Origin: a virus
Taxonomy: Duplodnaviria; Caudoviricetes
DNA length: 64,000 nt
Direction: 5' to 3' (one strand)
Virus record (IMG/VR): IMGVR_UViG_2974766419_000001
Coordinates: 1-64,000 of that record
Part shown: piece after piece, positions 3,927 to 42,838 of the stretch
Numbering within the stretch: the stretch's first letter is position 1
Layout: each line of letters begins with the position of its first letter
Translations under genes and position numbers: made by a program
Notes under the pieces: generated by a model
Seen by the model: only the letters and a program-made list of their open reading frames with translations
Database searches by the model: none
Told to the model about the DNA's origin: nothing

Positions 3927-4750
3927 GCCCAGAACCCTGCCGTGCTGGCTTGCATCTCGTCAGGCGACGAGACGCCGCTGGAGTACGCGGCGAGGTGGGC
4001 CAGTGCCCGCTCGCGCTGCTCGGGTGCCATCCGGTCGAGCACCGCCTGGCCTTCGGGTGTGAGGTTCACCAGCGCCGGGGCGGCCTGCGGCTCAGGCTCG
4101 GGTGCGGTCCAGAAGTCCGCGGGCACGGCGACAGCCGGTCCGGTGTGGTCGACGGGCTGGTCTTCGCGCGGCTCGAAGACGCAGCCGGGTACGTGCGGCG
4201 TGGCGAACTCGGTGGGGCAACACTGGCGCTTCATCGGCTCGGGCTTGAGCTCGGGTTCGGGCACGGCCTGTTCGGAACCCGAACACCCTTCAGGTGTGGA
4301 ATCGGCCCTGTGGCCGTGGTGGCGCATGAGGCCGCTGATGCCGACGTAGCCCTCGTCAGGTGTGGGATCGGCCAGTTCTCCGACGACCTCGGCGAGCTTG
4401 CCGACGACGCCCGCCAGCTCGGCCAGTTGGGTGCCGAACTGCTTGAGCGCCTTCTCGCACCCGGCGACGCGTTCGGCCAGCTTCTCCACCGCGCGGTCAG
4501 TGTCGGAATCCCACGGTCGCTCAGTCTCGACTTGAGGTTGAGACTCGGCAGGCCTCTCCGCGAGCCGCAGGGTTGATCCCGTGAGCACCACGCCTTCCTC
4601 GATGAGCCTGTCGAGTTCCGCGCCGCCAGCCTTGTAGTCGCCGGTCGCCGCGCGGATGAGCTTGGTTCGCGTCAGGCCGCGTTCGGGTGCCTCGGCGAGT
4701 GCGTCGATGAGACGAGCGCGAATCCGCTCGGATGGGTTCGTGGGGGGCAT
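3923..4750 (-). CDS. Putative DNA-binding protein (N-terminal winged-HTH-like, coiled coil, Pro/Glu-rich linker)
   Basis: IDALAEAPERGLTRTKLIRAA...ELDRLIEEGVV resembles a wHTH; leaderless start behind a SigA-like promoter. Confidence 0.65.
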   Translation of the reverse strand: MPPTNPSERIRARLIDALAEAPERGLTRTKLIRAATGDYKAGGAELDRLIEEGVVLTGSTLRLAERPAESQPQVETERPWDSDTDRAVEKLAERVAGCEKALKQFGTQLAELAGVVGKLAEVVGELADPTPDEGYVGISGLMRHHGHRADSTPEGCSGSEQAVPEPELKPEPMKRQCCPTEFATPHVPGCVFEPREDQPVDHTGPAVAVPADFWTAPEPEPQAAPALVNLTPEGQAVLDRMAPEQRERALAHLAAYSSGVSSPDEMQASTAGFWA

Positions 4751-36060: not shown

Positions 36061-36909
36061 GTGGCAGTGACCAACTGGACTGTGACGGTCATCGACGGCA
36101 AGCAGTACCTCGTCATCGAGGTGGCACAGTTCCGCGTCCCGCTCGACTGGGACCCCTCGTCCAACATGTTCATCGCGGTCGCCGCGCCCGACGGCGGCCT
36201 GGGCAACTTCCCCGCCCTGGTGCGCGGCGAGAACGGCGAAACCCCTGAGCTCGATTCGGTCATCGACTTCACCCCGCTCGCCTGGAATGATCCGACGCCT
36301 GACTTCGCGTCGTGGACCGAGACCAGCGAGAACGTGTATCGGCTCAGCCTGGGCCTGCACACCGGCGCGCCCGGCGACGCGGGTCCGATCAACCTGGCCG
36401 ACGCCGAGGACCTGGCGGGTGCGCTCGCCGCGGGCAAGCTCATCGCCGTCAACGCCACTGCCGACGGGTTTGAGCTGGTGTCACCGAAGGTCGGCGACAT
36501 GTACTGGCCTGCCACCATCAACAACACTCCCTCCGGCAACACCGCATACACGCTGTGCCCTGTGCCCATCCCTGCGCAGCCCTTCGACTGGCGGCCCGAG
36601 CCGCAGGGCTGGTGCGTCATCACCGGCACCGGCCCCAACGTGCAGGCTGATCTGATCGCGCGGCTCGACAACGCGGCGTCCGGCAACATCGTCGGCCGCG
36701 GCCGCGGGCACGTCGGGCAGAACACCGAGGGCTTCGCCACCAACCTGGCGGCCGGTCCACCGCCCGGCTCGGCTGCCGACTACAACAAGGTGCCAGCGGG
36801 CCAGGAGGCCGTCATCTACCTGCGTGTGGAGCGCCAGTCCGGCTCTGACACGTTCACCACCACCGCTTCCGCCACCTACTTCAGCGTGCGGGTCCAGCCG
36901 ATTCCATGA
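36061..36909 (+). CDS. Minor tail protein
   Basis: AVAAP.GG.G.FPALVRG..G.TP...PFDWRP pattern. Confidence 0.8.
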   Translation: MAVTNWTVTVIDGKQYLVIEVAQFRVPLDWDPSSNMFIAVAAPDGGLGNFPALVRGENGETPELDSVIDFTPLAWNDPTPDFASWTETSENVYRLSLGLHTGAPGDAGPINLADAEDLAGALAAGKLIAVNATADGFELVSPKVGDMYWPATINNTPSGNTAYTLCPVPIPAQPFDWRPEPQGWCVITGTGPNVQADLIARLDNAASGNIVGRGRGHVGQNTEGFATNLAAGPPPGSAADYNKVPAGQEAVIYLRVERQSGSDTFTTTASATYFSVRVQPIP

Positions 36910-39416
36910 CCGAACCCGAAGGTGAAATCCCTGACTGGGTGCGCAAGGTACCCCGTCAGGTCAGGAAGCTGCCTCCCAATAACCAGTGGGAGGGCATCTC
37001 TGAGGAGATGATGCAGCAGCTGCGCGGGCAGCTGTTGGAGAGCATTCTGTCTGCCGTCGTGCAGGCCATCCGCGGGCTGTTCGTGCCGGGGCCGTTCGGG
37101 TCGGCGGCCGAGCAGTTGGAGCAGTGGGCGCAGGGCCTCGGCGCCGAGATCATCGCGAAGATCTACGAACTGACTGGCATCAACCTGTCATCGTGGGACG
37201 CGTTTCTGGAGTCGCTGTCCGACGGCAAGGGCATCGACCTGCCGTTCGTCGGCAACGCGCTCAACGCGCTGTCGGCGTTCTTTGGCGGCATCGACTGGGA
37301 GAACCCGCCCAGCCCTGGCGAGGTGTGGCGCGCTGTGGTGGCCGCGTTCATCCAGCCCCTGAACCTTCTGCTTGGGCCGAACTCGCCGCTCAACCCGGCG
37401 AAGCTCAACGAAAATCTGTGGCCGCTCGGCGCGTTCCCCAGCGATTCGGTCGCGGGCGGCGGCGGGTGGACGTTCGACTCCAGTGTGACTCGCACCGCCG
37501 GGTCGACCGGCTCGGTGAAGGTTGTCGCCGACGGCACGATGAAGGCGCTGCTGGGCATCCCGGCTGCCGTGGTGGAAGATCAGCAGGTCGACCTGTCGGT
37601 GTTCGTCAAATGGGCTGACTACGTGGGCACCGCCGCACCCATCCAGCTTCAGGTGGCCGAGTACAGCGGCGTCGGAGCGTCAGCCAGCCGCGTCGGCGAG
37701 ACGGTCGTCGTGTCGCTCGGCCCGCCCACCTCAGCAGGCGGGTGGTCGGAGCTGGCCGGCACCTACACGGTGCCCGAAGGCGTGGACGAGATTCGCCCGC
37801 GCCTGGTGGTGACGCAGGGCGCGACCGCGGGCACATTCCACTTCGATGATGTGGTCGGCCGCAACAAGCTGATCCTCGACTGGATCGCCAACCTGCCCGA
37901 GCAGCTGCAAGACCTGCTGGGCCGCATTCAGGCGCTCATTGATTCTGTGGTGCAGGCGTTCACCGGGGCCAACTCGCTGGGCAACAAGCTCGAAGAGTTC
38001 CTGTTTGCGCTCAGCAACATTCGACCTGAGAACATCGTCGGCGTCCTTGGTCCCGGCACCATCGGCGAGGCCATCGAGAAGCTGGTAGACCAGCTCGTCT
38101 CCGGCATCGTCGGCGAGGACGGTGAAGGCGCGGGCCTGGCCGATCTGCGCGAGCTGATCGAGAAAATCTCCTCCCAGTCGTGGCTCGGCAAGGCGGCGTT
38201 CGCGTTGCTCGGCAAGCGGGACAACAAATCGCTCAACGCTGGGCTGATCCGCTCAGAGCGGTCCAACTTCAACCTGTCCGAGATCAACGACTCCTTCACC
38301 ATCGCGCCGGGCACCGCGCGGATCGCCTTCGACATCATCGAAGAGTCCATGCCGATCGGCGCTATCTCGTGGATCGGCTGGGGCATCGCGGGCATCACCG
38401 AGTTCTACGTGTACGTCTACCGCATCGGCAACCTCAACCAGCCGGGCGGCAAAGCTGAGCAGCTGTGGCAGTCGCCCAACGTGGTGGGTGTCCTGGAGGG
38501 GACCAGCTCACCTGGCGCATACAACCGCTGCCCTGTCGATGAGCCGATCGCCGCTGAGGCGGGCGACCTGCTGGCCTACGTGTTCGTCTCGGTCGGCGGT
38601 TCGCACACCATCCGCGGTCGCAGCGAAAACCTGCCGTTCGACAACTCGGCTGCCGCGCCGGTCGGTGCCCGCGGTGCCACCCACACCATCACCGGAGATC
38701 CCGACGCGCTGCCAGAAGAGCTCACCAAGGACGACATCGACTGGTCCAACGAGGTGCCGTGGGTGGGTATCGCGGTGGACATCGGCGACGGCGGCGCGTA
38801 CCGCGACCCCGAGCAGCTTCAGCTCAACTCGGCCACCTCCCTGCCCATCCCGAACTGGTGTGACAGGGTGGATGTCATCGTGCTCGGCAAGGGTGGCAAC
38901 GCGGCCGACGGGTTCGCCGGGTTCTACGGAAATGCTGGGTCGCCCGGCTCGTACAACGAGGTCACCTGGGTGCGCGGTGAACATTTCACCGGCACGACGA
39001 TCCTCACCTACGACGGCACCGCCGTTTCTATCCCTGGATTCTCGGTGACCGGCAACAACGGTGCGAACGGCGTCGGGCAACGCCTCGCCGTGTTCGGCCC
39101 GCCCGTTGGTCGCGGCCCCGGCAGCCACGAGTACAACGGACTCAAGGCTGTCGGTGGCGCGGACCAGACCACCCTCGGCGGAAACGGCACAACACCGGGC
39201 GGCGCGGCCAACGGTGGGCACTGGCTCGGCCTGTACACCCAAGGCGGCAACGGCGGCAAGGGCCGCGCCTGGATCCAGTTCCGGCAAGAGGTGGTCGGTG
39301 AGATCATCAGCGAGCCGGACGACACCCCACCGGACATCAGCGGCATGGAGGTCGAGGTCGTGTCCAGCAACACCAGCAGCATCACCCTGACAATCTCGGG
39401 AGCGGTCGATGCCTAG
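36906..39416 (+). CDS. Large minor tail protein (carbohydrate-binding-like and Gly-rich domains; ends with half an FN3 domain)
   Basis: ATGA overlap; GGNGGKG Gly-rich region; C-terminus DTPP...TSSITLTISGAVDA. Confidence 0.85.
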   Translation: MTEPEGEIPDWVRKVPRQVRKLPPNNQWEGISEEMMQQLRGQLLESILSAVVQAIRGLFVPGPFGSAAEQLEQWAQGLGAEIIAKIYELTGINLSSWDAFLESLSDGKGIDLPFVGNALNALSAFFGGIDWENPPSPGEVWRAVVAAFIQPLNLLLGPNSPLNPAKLNENLWPLGAFPSDSVAGGGGWTFDSSVTRTAGSTGSVKVVADGTMKALLGIPAAVVEDQQVDLSVFVKWADYVGTAAPIQLQVAEYSGVGASASRVGETVVVSLGPPTSAGGWSELAGTYTVPEGVDEIRPRLVVTQGATAGTFHFDDVVGRNKLILDWIANLPEQLQDLLGRIQALIDSVVQAFTGANSLGNKLEEFLFALSNIRPENIVGVLGPGTIGEAIEKLVDQLVSGIVGEDGEGAGLADLRELIEKISSQSWLGKAAFALLGKRDNKSLNAGLIRSERSNFNLSEINDSFTIAPGTARIAFDIIEESMPIGAISWIGWGIAGITEFYVYVYRIGNLNQPGGKAEQLWQSPNVVGVLEGTSSPGAYNRCPVDEPIAAEAGDLLAYVFVSVGGSHTIRGRSENLPFDNSAAAPVGARGATHTITGDPDALPEELTKDDIDWSNEVPWVGIAVDIGDGGAYRDPEQLQLNSATSLPIPNWCDRVDVIVLGKGGNAADGFAGFYGNAGSPGSYNEVTWVRGEHFTGTTILTYDGTAVSIPGFSVTGNNGANGVGQRLAVFGPPVGRGPGSHEYNGLKAVGGADQTTLGGNGTTPGGAANGGHWLGLYTQGGNGGKGRAWIQFRQEVVGEIISEPDDTPPDISGMEVEVVSSNTSSITLTISGAVDA

Positions 39417-40899
39417 CGGACTGCGCGGCTACAACGTCTTCCTCGACGGGGTGAAGATCAACAACGATCCCATCCCCAACGGCGGGACGGTCCCCCTGGC
39501 GGGCCTGTCGCAGGCGACCGACTACTCCAGCCGGATCACCGTCACCGCCATCGACAAGGCGGGCAACGAATCCGAACCGGTGACACTGGCCGACCTGGGG
39601 ACGACCGCCACGACGACAGTGCCCAGCCCTGACGATCCGCTGCCGGCCGACATCACGGCGGCCATCGACGCGCTGGTGGCGTCCAAGCTGAAGCCCAACA
39701 CCAAGACTGATGGCGCGCTGGTCGGCATCGTCACGCCCAATGGCAGCTACTACAAGGCATACGGCGGCGACCGCACCTCGGGCCAGACCCTGACCTTGGC
39801 GCACCGGACCCGCTACGGCTCCATCTCCAAGATGTACTGCAACACCCTGGTGCTGGCGCAGATCGACGCGGGCCACATCTCGTTCGATGACACCCTCGAT
39901 CAGTTCGTGTCGGGGGTGGCCAACGGCGACAAGATCACCATCCGGCACCTATTGATGATGCAGTCGGGGATCAAGGATTACCTGGGTGAGGACGCGGCGG
40001 TGCAGCAGTCGTATTTCCTCAACCCCACCTCGACGTTCGACCCCATGCCCTACATCCGCAGCTATGAGCCGATGTATGAGCCGGGCGAGTCTTCGTCCTA
40101 CTCCAACTCGAACACGATTCTCCTGGGGAAAATTCTGGAGTGGTGTGACGCCGAGTATGGGTCGGGGCGCGGCATCCGGCAGATCATCCTCGAGGACGCC
40201 TGCGCAACGCTCGGCCTGGACGAGACCGAGTGGCCGACCGGCAACTACCTGTCCCCGCCCTACATGCGGGGCTGGACGCCGAACCTGGCGCTGCCGCAGA
40301 TTCAGGCGCTGCTCGGCCCGCTGGCGTTCCTGGCCGGACTGTTCGGCTATCCGACCGCAGCGGAGCTGGAGTGGACCGCGGTGTCGACCACCTGGGCCGG
40401 CGCGGCCGGTTCCCTCGGCGGCACCATCTACGACCTGGTGAAGTTCGGCGAGCATCTGCGCGACGGGACGCTGCTGTCACCGGAGATGAAGCGCAGGCAA
40501 GAGGAAGAGTTCGTCACCTACGTCACCTACGACCCGAAGGGGCCGTGGGAGGGGCCGGGGTGGATGGGATTCGGGCTGAACACCATCCTGTTCGGCTACT
40601 GGCAGGGCTGGATCGGTAACCTCGGCGGCTATATCTCGGTGCTGTTCTACAACAAGCGCGACGGGTCGATCATCGCGTTGTCGCTGAACAACTTCACCGC
40701 CGAGTCGGTGGACCTGTTCTACCGGATCGCCTACCTGCTGAAGCCGGAGGATTCGGTGCTGTCGCCGTGGATTCTGCGGCCGCGCGGCAAGATCGGTTCA
40801 ACCTCGAAGGTCGGCAAGCCTGGCGTGTACGTTTACCACGAGCCAGGTGATGAAGACGGCAACACCGAAGTTCCCCTCAAGGTTCCGTTCTACATCTGA
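39409..40899 (+). CDS. Minor tail protein: partial FN3 + D-Ala-D-Ala carboxypeptidase/beta-lactamase-like serine hydrolase
   Basis: GSISK (SxxK), YSNSN (YxN), GNLGGY; N-terminal GYNVFLDG...AIDKAGNES. Confidence 0.88.
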   Translation: MPSGLRGYNVFLDGVKINNDPIPNGGTVPLAGLSQATDYSSRITVTAIDKAGNESEPVTLADLGTTATTTVPSPDDPLPADITAAIDALVASKLKPNTKTDGALVGIVTPNGSYYKAYGGDRTSGQTLTLAHRTRYGSISKMYCNTLVLAQIDAGHISFDDTLDQFVSGVANGDKITIRHLLMMQSGIKDYLGEDAAVQQSYFLNPTSTFDPMPYIRSYEPMYEPGESSSYSNSNTILLGKILEWCDAEYGSGRGIRQIILEDACATLGLDETEWPTGNYLSPPYMRGWTPNLALPQIQALLGPLAFLAGLFGYPTAAELEWTAVSTTWAGAAGSLGGTIYDLVKFGEHLRDGTLLSPEMKRRQEEEFVTYVTYDPKGPWEGPGWMGFGLNTILFGYWQGWIGNLGGYISVLFYNKRDGSIIALSLNNFTAESVDLFYRIAYLLKPEDSVLSPWILRPRGKIGSTSKVGKPGVYVYHEPGDEDGNTEVPLKVPFYI

Positions 40900-40910: not shown

Positions 40911-41312
40911 GTGGCAAACGCGCTCTACGCCAAGTACAAGGAGAAGGTGCTCGCCGGTGGCGTCTCCTGGACCGGCGACAACATCAAGGTGGCACTGGTC
41001 GACGCCGACGATTACACCGTGGACCTCGACGCCGACGAGTTCCTGGACGACATCGCCAGCGGCGCGATCATCGCCACGTCAGCAAACCTTGGATCGAAGA
41101 CGGTCACCGGAGGTGTGGCCGACGCAGCGAACGTCACGTTCACTGCGGTCAGCGGCGACATTTCCGAGGCGCTGGTGATCTTCAAGGACACCGGCACCGC
41201 ATCCACCTCGCCGCTCATCGCCTACATCGACGACGCGGATGGCCTGGCGGTGACACCGAACGGCGGCGACATCACCGTTATCTGGCCTGACGACGGCATC
41301 TTCGAGCTGTAA
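40911..41312 (+). CDS. Minor tail/virion protein (133 aa)
   Basis: GAAGGAG SD; IKVALVD...ADAANVTF...LIAYID...NGGDIT. Confidence 0.75.
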   Translation: MANALYAKYKEKVLAGGVSWTGDNIKVALVDADDYTVDLDADEFLDDIASGAIIATSANLGSKTVTGGVADAANVTFTAVSGDISEALVIFKDTGTASTSPLIAYIDDADGLAVTPNGGDITVIWPDDGIFEL

Positions 41313-41315
41313 CTC

Positions 41316-41717
41316 ATGGCTGTCGTTGGATGGTGGGCCGAGGCGTTCGTCGCGACTGAACGCATCGCGTCGACGGCTGCGGTGGGCGCCCCCACGGTGG
41401 AGGTCGGCGCGCTTCCTGTGTACCTGGAGCGGATCGAATCGACCTCCGCGGTGCATCGGCCTGTCGTCATCGGCCCGCTTCAATTCATCGAGCCAGCCAA
41501 GATCGCGTCGAAGTCGTTGGTCACCTCGCCCGTCGTGGCGGTGGGCGGCGTGACCGCCGAGCCAACCAAGATCGGATCGACATCTTCAGTAGGGTCGCCC
41601 ACCATCGAGGTCGGCCCGGTCTCCGTCGAGCCGGTGCGCATCGAGTCGACCTCCGTGGTGCACGGCGGCCGGGTGTTCCGCGCCGGTGTTCCCTACACAG
41701 TCCCCTTCACGATCTAG
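41316..41717 (+). CDS. Minor tail protein with five ~20-aa repeats
   Basis: Repeats of type I.S...VG.P.V..G; ends PYTVPFTI*. Confidence 0.75.
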   Translation: MAVVGWWAEAFVATERIASTAAVGAPTVEVGALPVYLERIESTSAVHRPVVIGPLQFIEPAKIASKSLVTSPVVAVGGVTAEPTKIGSTSSVGSPTIEVGPVSVEPVRIESTSVVHGGRVFRAGVPYTVPFTI

Positions 41718-41963: not shown

Positions 41964-42152
41964 ATGGCACTACCCACCAACTGGGTCGATGAGATCGGCA
42001 TGGAGGTGGATGCCGCCTACCTCAACGACGTCGGCGAAACCGTCAACGAGCTGGACGACGCCCTGGACGGCAAGAGCCTCCGCGTCATGTCGCAGGCCAC
42101 CTACGATGGCCTCGGCTCGAAGGACTCGAACACTGTCTATGTGGTGACGTAA
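41964..42152 (+). CDS. Small tail-fibre-associated protein (62 aa)
   Basis: MSQATYDGL..KDSNTVYVV motif; GGAGG SD. Confidence 0.7.
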   Translation: MALPTNWVDEIGMEVDAAYLNDVGETVNELDDALDGKSLRVMSQATYDGLGSKDSNTVYVVT

Positions 42153-42838
42153 TGGCGCTCAAGGTTGGCAGCTCCGACGTGGCCGGCGTGTACGTCGGCA
42201 GCAACATGGTCAAAGGTGTGTACGTCGGCAGCACAAAGGTGTGGGCACCGGCGGCGTACGACAACTGTGCGGGTGCCAACGGTCTGGGCAGCGGCACCAG
42301 CTTCAGCTTCACGGCAGCCGCTGGTGCTGACGTGTTCGCGGTGCTGACCTATGACCGCACAGCGTCGCCGGGCACGCCTACCTACAACGGCGTGGCGATG
42401 TCGCACTACATGACCCTCTACCACAACAACACCGCCAGCACGGGTGGGCTGATGATCTGGCGGGCGGCCAAGGCGGGCACCGGATCAGCCGCTACGGTCG
42501 TGTCGCCGTCGGCAGGCAGCGCCTGGTGGTCTTTCGCCGCCATCTCGTTCCGCGACGTGCACACCCTGCACACCCCGCAGACCGCCTACAACTACACCCA
42601 GAATCCGTCGGTTTCGTGGACCCTGGCTCCCGGCCAGGTCGCCCTGTTTGCGCTGGGCGGCGGCAACGGCGGCGGCTCAATGGGTGCGTACTCGTCCATC
42701 TCGGGTGTGACCACCAGGTACACGGCAGGAAACGCCGGTAGCTCCATTGTGGTGGCCGCGCCTGAAGCGTCCGGTTCGATGTCCTGCAGCGGCGCATTCC
42801 AGCACCGCTGGGCGAACATCGTCATCCCGATGAGCTGA
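42152..42838 (+). CDS. Minor tail protein (228 aa)
   Basis: VYVGS..VKGVYVGSTKVW N-terminal motif; Ser/Ala/Gly beta-rich domain. Confidence 0.75.
   Translation: MALKVGSSDVAGVYVGSNMVKGVYVGSTKVWAPAAYDNCAGANGLGSGTSFSFTAAAGADVFAVLTYDRTASPGTPTYNGVAMSHYMTLYHNNTASTGGLMIWRAAKAGTGSAATVVSPSAGSAWWSFAAISFRDVHTLHTPQTAYNYTQNPSVSWTLAPGQVALFALGGGNGGGSMGAYSSISGVTTRYTAGNAGSSIVVAAPEASGSMSCSGAFQHRWANIVIPMS

Follow-up and report, generated by a model that had tools for sequence, protein, structure and literature searches.

How can one folded domain be shared between two genes? The question is raised by the boundary between two adjacent tail genes in a 64,000-nucleotide (nt) stretch of phage DNA (IMG/VR record IMGVR_UViG_2974766419_000001, positions 1 to 64,000), hereafter the window. 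The window phage is a Cluster O (Corndog-like) mycobacteriophage. A preliminary description, made from the sequence alone, had noted two overlapping open reading frames (ORFs) and had read their facing ends as one fibronectin type III (FN3) domain, with strands A-B in the first gene and C-G in the second. Three explanations had been offered: complementation in trans that clips a carboxypeptidase onto the tail tip, a programmed +1 frameshift that yields an optional fusion, and a one-base mutation or sequencing error. The best reading, to which we assign a probability of about 0.8, is that two polypeptides are made and joined by complementation of a split FN3 domain. The features on which the question turns are as follows.

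36906-39416, plus strand: gene 1, 836 amino acids (aa), tail spike or central fibre; equals Corndog gp61, homologue of Bxb1 gp29
39409-40899, plus strand: gene 2, 496 aa, tail wing base, D-Ala-D-Ala-carboxypeptidase-like; equals Corndog gp62, homologue of Bxb1 gp30
39409-39416, plus strand: 8-base overlap ATGCCTAG, formed by the gene 2 start and the gene 1 stop
39398-39402, plus strand: GGGAG, Shine-Dalgarno (SD)-like, for gene 2, 6 nt before ATG
39324-39413, plus strand: predicted FN3 strands A and B, gene 1 residues about 807-836, TPPDISGMEVEVVSSNTSSITLTISGAVDA, from the fn3 and 1K85 alignments and the Marvin-like alignment
39415-39594, plus strand: predicted FN3 strands C, C', E, F and G, gene 2 residues about 3-62, from a hidden Markov model (HMM) match

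Translation of the ORFs showed that the gene 1 product ends in ...DTPPDISGMEVEVVSSNTSSITLTISGAVDA directly before its stop codon, and that the gene 2 product begins with MPSGLRGYNVFLDGVKINNDPIP... (longer read, MPSGLRGYNVFLDGVKINNDPIPNGGTVPLAGLSQATDYSSRITVTAIDKAGNESEPVTL). The frame of gene 2 is +1 relative to that of gene 1, and it is open upstream of the start for only six codons, from 39391, after a TGA at 39388-39390. The GGGAG element sits within Ser-Gly-Ala codons of the part of gene 1 assigned to the B-C loop, and relatives carry GGGAG or GGAGG at the equivalent place. Neither a promoter nor a plus-strand terminator was found between gene 1 and gene 2. The two ORFs, their 8-bp overlap, the +1 relation and the SD of gene 2 were thus confirmed as first described.

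For comparison with known domains, the junction was read through with TAGC taken as S, purely as a reading device, which gave a 106-residue stretch. The joined read matched Pfam fn3 (PF00041) over profile positions 5-82 of 84 (E 0.0029, 18.2 bits). The gene 1 piece alone gave no match to Pfam fn3, and the gene 2 piece alone reached E 0.11 over positions 42-82. When six joined sequences, drawn from four phage groups, were combined into a profile, it matched the FN3 domain of Bacillus chitinase A1 (1K85, E 2.5e-4) and also fibronectin (1FNH, E 0.002). Both alignments cross the junction (for example ititpsGavddasGlrGynvy versus ITLSWTAST-DNVGVTGYDVY), and the fn3 signature positions are present, namely a hydrophobic B strand, G-Y in C, G-L before E and Y in F, together with an F-G loop of the bacterial FN3 type, xAGNxS. 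A less biased test used an HMM built solely from natural unsplit FN3 domains. This HMM placed gene 2 residues 6-61 on its positions 44-95 (E 6e-9) and gene 1 residues 815-834 on its positions 18-37, and the gene 1 A-B segment aligned with the unsplit Marvin-like FN3. One natural unsplit relative (L101 type) scored 27.4 bits against Pfam fn3 (E 3.9e-6), above the cut-off of 25; the Marvin-like unsplit form gave no Pfam match. Because the fn3 and 1K85 matches span the junction, and because natural unsplit relatives exist, one of them above the Pfam cut-off, the FN3 resemblance exceeds chance. From the HMM placement of both halves, the predicted break lies in the B-C loop, with A and B on gene 1 and C, C', E, F and G on gene 2. 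The division of strands proposed at the outset was therefore borne out by the fn3, 1K85 and unsplit-FN3 HMM alignments.

Strand B with its loop (39360-39413, SSITLTISGAVDA) resembles strand F with its loop (39530-39570, SRITVTAIDKAGN). MAFFT alignments of half-domain fragments (A8-A10) put the gene 1 pieces onto strand F and were discarded; the likeness of the two strands is a trap for automated half-domain alignment.

Evidence that the two gene products are separate proteins in the virion came from the relatives Bxb1 and Corndog. In PDB entry 9D93 (Bxb1 tail tip), gp29 and gp30 are separate chains, with three copies of each. The entry reportedly originates from Freeman et al., Cell 2025; other publications that cite this study give no description of the interface. 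In the Bxb1 gp30 chain 477 of 496 residues are modelled and the aligned range begins at residue 3, and therefore this half-FN3 has an ordered structure in the Bxb1 virion. Gene 1 residues 328-835 matched residues 104-615 of the 9D93 chain 9d93_Pa, 'Tail spike, gp29' (E 4.6e-160), and gene 2 residues 1-495 matched residues 1-495 of 9d93_Sa, 'Tail wing base, gp30' (E 2.2e-196). Bxb1 gp30 is stated to attach to the tail spike and to bear gp31 and gp33 (PMC12646305, 2025 PNAS), and we infer that gp62 binds the spike in Cluster O. Corndog, whose junction region is 98.5% identical to that of the window, has been analysed directly: liquid chromatography-tandem mass spectrometry of twice-banded virions returned 448 spectra for gp61 and 343 for gp62, and the starts of gp62 and of Catdawg gp59 are marked 'Confirmed' by mass spectrometry (PMC4351075). 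Corndog gp61 is a trimeric central fibre of which only residues 6-93 of 836 are resolved in a 2026 cryo-electron microscopy preprint; the fibre beyond residue 93 is disordered, and gp62 is never mentioned there (PMC13252515). A distal location of gp62, on the flexible part of the central fibre, fits both its abundance in the mass spectrometry data and its absence from the Corndog baseplate map.

These observations bear on the proposal that a continuous gene of the window genome has been cut, either by a sequencing error of one base or by an inactivating mutation of recent date. A single base does separate the two frames, and in one contig (L084) a 1-nt difference merges both ORFs. The comparison of the junction in related phages that the preliminary description had called for was run with a 1.1-kb query comprising the junction and its context: it returned 32 independently sequenced Cluster O Mycobacterium phage records at 98.5-99.6% identity, and all 32 were annotated with two genes. 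The overlap ATGCCTAG was identical by direct reading in Corndog, YungJamal and Suarez (records from 2003 to 2024; USA and Spain), at least eight further phage groups show the split, and mass spectrometry confirmed where gene 2 starts. The error or mutation is thereby refuted.

The frame relation raised a second possibility, a programmed +1 frameshift at GCC-UAG-C that would produce a spike-FN3-enzyme fusion of about 1331 aa beside the separate proteins. Skipping U39414 would give ...SGAVDA-SGLRGY..., a seamless B-C loop; a stop codon in the A site is the classic +1 pause; four phage groups have exactly this 8-base overlap; and the fused forms that occur naturally demonstrate that a single joined protein can work. 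However, the P-site GCC cannot re-pair in the +1 frame (CCU), and there is no slippery codon. GGGAG is separated from GCC by 8 nt and from ATG by 6 nt, which is the spacing of initiation. At the prfB frameshift site the stimulatory SD spacing is 3 nt. The RNA shows no unusual structure (fold z -0.16), and the upstream opening of the gene 2 frame is short, as described above. Relatives with ATGA or TAATG have the same split at the protein level and would need a -1 shift, and one Bxb1-like locus has CAG in place of TAG with gene 2 intact. The independently confirmed start of gene 2 and the separate chains in 9D93 are likewise at odds with a frameshift, which we regard as very improbable; a rare fused product may still be made. 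The trans-complementation option of the preliminary description was the one supported, by the separate virion proteins, the separate 9D93 chains, the conserved split and the natural fusions.

A further candidate, protein trans-splicing, was rejected: halves of about 30 and 60 residues are far below split-intein size, and no intein family was matched.

Relatives were counted over 125 IMG/VR loci, collected in two scans of which the first covered 46, and over named phages. A split in the B-C loop was found in 99 of the 125 loci, in every sampled relative of Brujita, Bxb1, Dallas, Nova, Cornie, Pacc40, 244 and Weiss13, and also in Estave1 and Porcelain. We take these phages to belong to clusters I (Brujita), A (Bxb1), J (Dallas and Porcelain), D (Nova), R (Weiss13), F (Pacc40) and E (244). 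The forms encountered were the following.

B-C loop, 8-base overlap ATGCCTAG: Brujita, Bxb1 and Dallas; gene 1 ends SGAVD(D)A before the stop and gene 2 begins MPSGL(R/K)GYN
B-C loop, TAATG: Nova (...LPSGSVDQ before the stop, then MANDVSGLAGY), Weiss13 and L083
B-C loop, ATGA or GTGA: Cornie, Estave1, Pacc40, 244 and Porcelain; for example ...TLTITWSGATDV before the stop, then MTIKGYFVY
C'-E loop, TAATG: nine Konstantine-like records and Fowlmouthvirus phages (65% identical); ...AGYDFYLDGVKINDLLVPEEDE before the stop, then MPARFRFDGLPSNTEFTITSRAVDRTGNTSEF
Unsplit, with FN3: Marvin gp87 and a Marvin-like IMG/VR contig; a single 1318-aa ORF with spike, FN3 and enzyme (L061:901-4857; L054:157-4113)
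Unsplit, with FN3: 13 prophage-like loci and P0005 (758 aa), M. abscessus; about 760-790 aa with Gly_rich_2, fn3 and Beta-lactamase (L101:1912-4287)
Unsplit, without FN3: 13 loci with spike and enzyme fused; L086-L100 types, about 1375 aa

The 8-base overlap was present in 44 of the 46 loci of the first scan, and the ATGA or GTGA type of B-C split in 51 loci of the second. Three overlap geometries (ATGCCTAG, ATGA or GTGA, and TAATG) and two frame relations were therefore seen, gene 2 lying in the -1 frame in the ATGA and TAATG relatives. Despite very different sequences, the B-C splits all fall in one alignment column, within about one residue. Stop and start stand together in all three overlap geometries (ATGCCTAG, ATGA and TAATG), which argues for translational coupling, and the 8-base overlap is its probable site. 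As the natural fusions show, both halves belong to one domain. A search with gp62 residues 1-90 against proteins of 869-2480 aa found none, but this was a weak search and the fusions came to light by other routes.

In a tree of the catalytic domain, the 8-base-overlap group formed one clade (support 99/100), the Marvin-like fusion was sister to a split form, L083 (96/93), and the Konstantine type grouped with Pacc40-type split forms (94/96), on an unresolved backbone. This topology suggests, but does not prove, that fission or fusion took place more than once, and because of mosaicism the tree of the enzyme may not follow the history of the FN3 domain.

Several loci depart from these forms. 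Phage Pepe (NC_028680; L049:3501-4001) has a natural deletion that runs from about residue 77 of the wing base into the integrase gene; the enzyme and wing genes are lost, but exactly the FN3-completing N-terminal segment is retained, and Marchy and Tote have similar deletions. In a Bxb1-like IMG/VR genome (L022:3501-3658), the spike stop TAG is CAG, giving a 50-residue out-of-frame spike tail with gene 2 intact; the change may be a real variant or an error. A Cheoctovirus-like contig (L084:445-5817) carries a 1-nt difference about 10 codons before the junction that produces one 1790-aa ORF with a garbled B strand (…FSTIVGASSGEHRRMSVVSYNVY…), and this merger may be a sequencing error or a natural fusion. 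In SkiPole- and Lockley-like loci (L042 and L045), gene 2 ends at 4538, with the carboxypeptidase frameshifted at about residue 330; the truncated enzyme is annotated as two genes in GenBank, in agreement with an enzyme that is dispensable in the laboratory.

The conserved split could also be a relic of gene fission, in which the A-B remnant no longer co-folds and gp62 binds the tail through another surface. The existence of fused relatives is compatible with such a history, as is the lack of significant FN3 likeness in the hairpin alone, and some fused prophage forms have no FN3 (L086-L100 types), so the domain is not essential for a covalent link between spike and enzyme. Against the relic stand the hairpin residues TPP, V and SG-VD, which are invariant across lineages that are 34-60% identical over the hairpin (alignment A2), and a break point held within about one residue across very different sequences. 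Substitution rates were compared among representatives of O, I, A and J over the 29-30 codons of the hairpin. The ratio of nonsynonymous to synonymous substitution (dN/dS) was 0.24-0.79 for the A-B hairpin at dS 0.65-1.6, 0.19-0.72 for the adjoining glycine-rich domain and 0.16-0.30 for the C-G half, values that are few in number and come from non-independent pairs. A useless tail of 30 residues should decay at dS near 1, and the hairpin dN/dS lies well below 1; the hairpin thus appears to be under purifying selection rather than decaying as a useless remnant would. In addition, the Bxb1 map shows an ordered half-FN3 in gp30, and an open five-strand fragment alone would hardly be ordered. We consider a relic unlikely, if less so than a frameshift.

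The gene 2 half was also examined in an AlphaFold2 (AF2) model of gp62 alone, with strands assigned by DSSP and the fold compared by VIA-align. Residues 1-90 were modelled at a predicted local distance difference test score (pLDDT) of 78-91. Strands were assigned at residues 5-12, 15-16, 43-49 and 58-59, corresponding to C, C', F and G, and the E stretch (about residues 26-32) was unpaired. In the model an unpaired E is what FN3 topology would predict if the partner strands A and B come from elsewhere. The top VIA-align match was 9d93_Sa (Z 25.3, 379 residues aligned, model residues 3-462 versus chain residues 3-465), with a root-mean-square deviation of 15.1 that arises from differing domain orientation.

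Complementation of the split FN3 domain, our preferred reading, builds on two separate virion proteins, their homology with gp29 and gp30, a conserved split and the unsplit forms; the interface would most likely be the reconstituted FN3 domain. In the mechanism that we propose, one transcript would give rise to two separate polypeptides. Gene 2 would initiate at its own GGGAG and at the ATG that overlaps the gene 1 stop, an arrangement from which initiation is probably coupled and similar amounts are made. The last 30 or so residues of the spike would constitute A-B, and the first 60 or so residues of the enzyme would constitute C, C', E, F and G. The enzyme would thus supply the whole C'-C-F-G sheet and an orphan E strand, and pairing of the spike hairpin with E would build the A-B-E sheet and close the hydrophobic core. 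A spike trimer would offer three A-B hairpins, so that one enzyme could be held per spike chain by a non-covalent joint, with a resulting 3:3 stoichiometry that is the one deposited for Bxb1. The wing arm, the product of the next gene, would then attach to the enzyme.

Four observations weigh against this reading. The 18.2 bits of the joined window read are below the Pfam fn3 gathering cut-off of 25 bits, and therefore the window domain is best named a divergent FN3-like domain. The gene 1 hairpin alone was not significant against the unsplit-FN3 HMM (E 1.8). The AF2 model of gp62 was poor overall, with a mean pLDDT of 58.7. Finally, a Bxb1 gene 30 deletion is viable, with smaller plaques and loss of the halo (PMC12646305); the wing base of Bxb1 is therefore dispensable, and the spike tolerates an uncomplemented hairpin.

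The remainder of gene 2, the genes that follow it and the rest of gene 1 contain the following features.

39691-40719, plus strand: serine beta-lactamase or DD-peptidase-like catalytic domain of gene 2, Pfam PF00144, residues 95-437
40911-41312, plus strand: next gene, 133 aa, matches 9d93_Ra, 'Tail wing arm, gp31' (E 2.1e-24)
38832-39305, plus strand: putative glycine-rich (polyglycine-type) domain of gene 1, directly 5' of the FN3 hairpin, from Pfam Gly_rich_2 and alignments

PF00144 scored 133.3 bits on gene 2 (E 1.5e-38), versus a cut-off of 27. In an alignment with the R61 DD-peptidase, S138-I-S-K141 falls on SxxK and Y231-S-N233 on YxN, and these residues are invariant in the relative alignments A1 and A5. 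Since the SxxK and YxN motifs of R61 are kept, the gene 2 enzyme is predicted to be active, probably on the cell wall. A second 133-aa gene (41316-41717) adjoins the gp31 homologue. For this gene and for a 228-aa gene at 42152-42838, no solved relative was found by sequence, and no homologue of the gp33 'brush' was detected by sequence in the window.

In gene 1, Pfam Gly_rich_2 gave a weak match to residues 643-699 (E 0.0023, below the cut-off), and the glycine-rich region aligned with the equivalent region of Bxb1 gp29 and with the A6 relatives; judging by these alignments, the domain may reach to about residue 800. The N-terminal third of the spike (36906-37900) is unrelated to Bxb1 gp29, and residues 164-366 matched gp20, which is the central fibre in phage Douge (8ZDO, E 1.3e-19). 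The spike is thus a mosaic, and it is its distal portion alone that moves together with the wing base gene.

The protein pair and its association were already known from Bxb1. What may be new is the explicit proposal that at the joint a gene boundary runs through a single FN3 domain, the survey of phage groups, with its natural fusions and a second cut site, and the implication for the location of Corndog gp62. Complementation of the split domain would explain how the virion-borne cell-wall enzyme of Cluster O is attached. It would also account for the absence of gp62 from the Corndog baseplate map despite the abundance of this protein in the mass spectrometry data, since gp62 would be located far out on the flexible fibre. 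The locus would also be a clear natural case of a gene boundary that passes through a folded domain, for which the fused and differently split forms serve as natural controls. For annotation, pairs of 'minor tail proteins' could be named as spike and wing base, and in phage engineering wings might be swapped or removed, for example in therapeutic mycobacteriophages; a tag pair for protein engineering may also result.

Whether the split FN3 is a selected and reusable 'plug and socket', as opposed to a tolerated accident, is a more speculative matter. That proposal rests on a domain cut at two loops (B-C and C'-E) and on the existence of unsplit forms, and we hold it as a tentative suggestion that is rather doubtful at present. 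If it were true, recombination at the gene boundary could bring together spike and enzyme modules of different ancestry that remain able to assemble, wings could join the particle late or come off in the course of infection, and nature would have provided a self-assembling split-FN3 tag pair.

The arrangement was finally compared with known systems. The re-pairing, the SD spacing or structure and the conserved frame relation of a prfB-type +1 site were not found at the junction. In chaperone-usher pili, donor-strand complementation completes an incomplete immunoglobulin-like sandwich with a strand from another polypeptide and forms a very stable non-covalent joint. The likeness of the proposed FN3 joint to this system would lie in a sandwich completed in trans and is a mechanistic analogy only. 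Unlike in pili, the donated element would be a two-strand A-B hairpin in place of a single G strand; a chaperone, an usher, polymerisation and any sequence relation are all absent, and the joint does not belong to that family.

The catalytic domain of gene 2 matched the hydrolases that resemble Streptomyces R61 DD-peptidase and class C beta-lactamase (PF00144; 1CEF and 3PTE; E 1.1e-14, Z about 17.6). Unlike the R61 enzyme, the gene 2 product is a virion-borne tail appendage with an N-terminal half-FN3. Marvin gp87 and the M. abscessus proteins share the order of the window, glycine-rich, FN3 and beta-lactamase-like, and both FN3 halves align with theirs; unlike the window pair, each is one polypeptide whose B-C loop is encoded without stop, SD or ATG. 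In Konstantine gp34/gp35 (L055:2788) and MrMiyagi gp24/gp25 (L141:1819), one FN3 domain is likewise shared by a spike-enzyme pair across a stop and start. In the Konstantine and Fowlmouthvirus pairs, unlike in the window, gene 1 has A, B, C and C' and gene 2 has only E, F and G.

The comparison with Bxb1 gp29/gp30 shows some differences. The window spike has 836 aa versus 617 aa in gp29, with an unrelated N-terminal third, no gp33 homologue was detected by sequence, and the distal fibre and gp62 are unresolved in the Corndog map. At the junction itself the two phages agree: both have the same 8-base overlap, a first gene product that ends ...SGAVD(D)A before the stop, a second that starts MPSGLRGYNV, and a gp31 homologue as the next gene.

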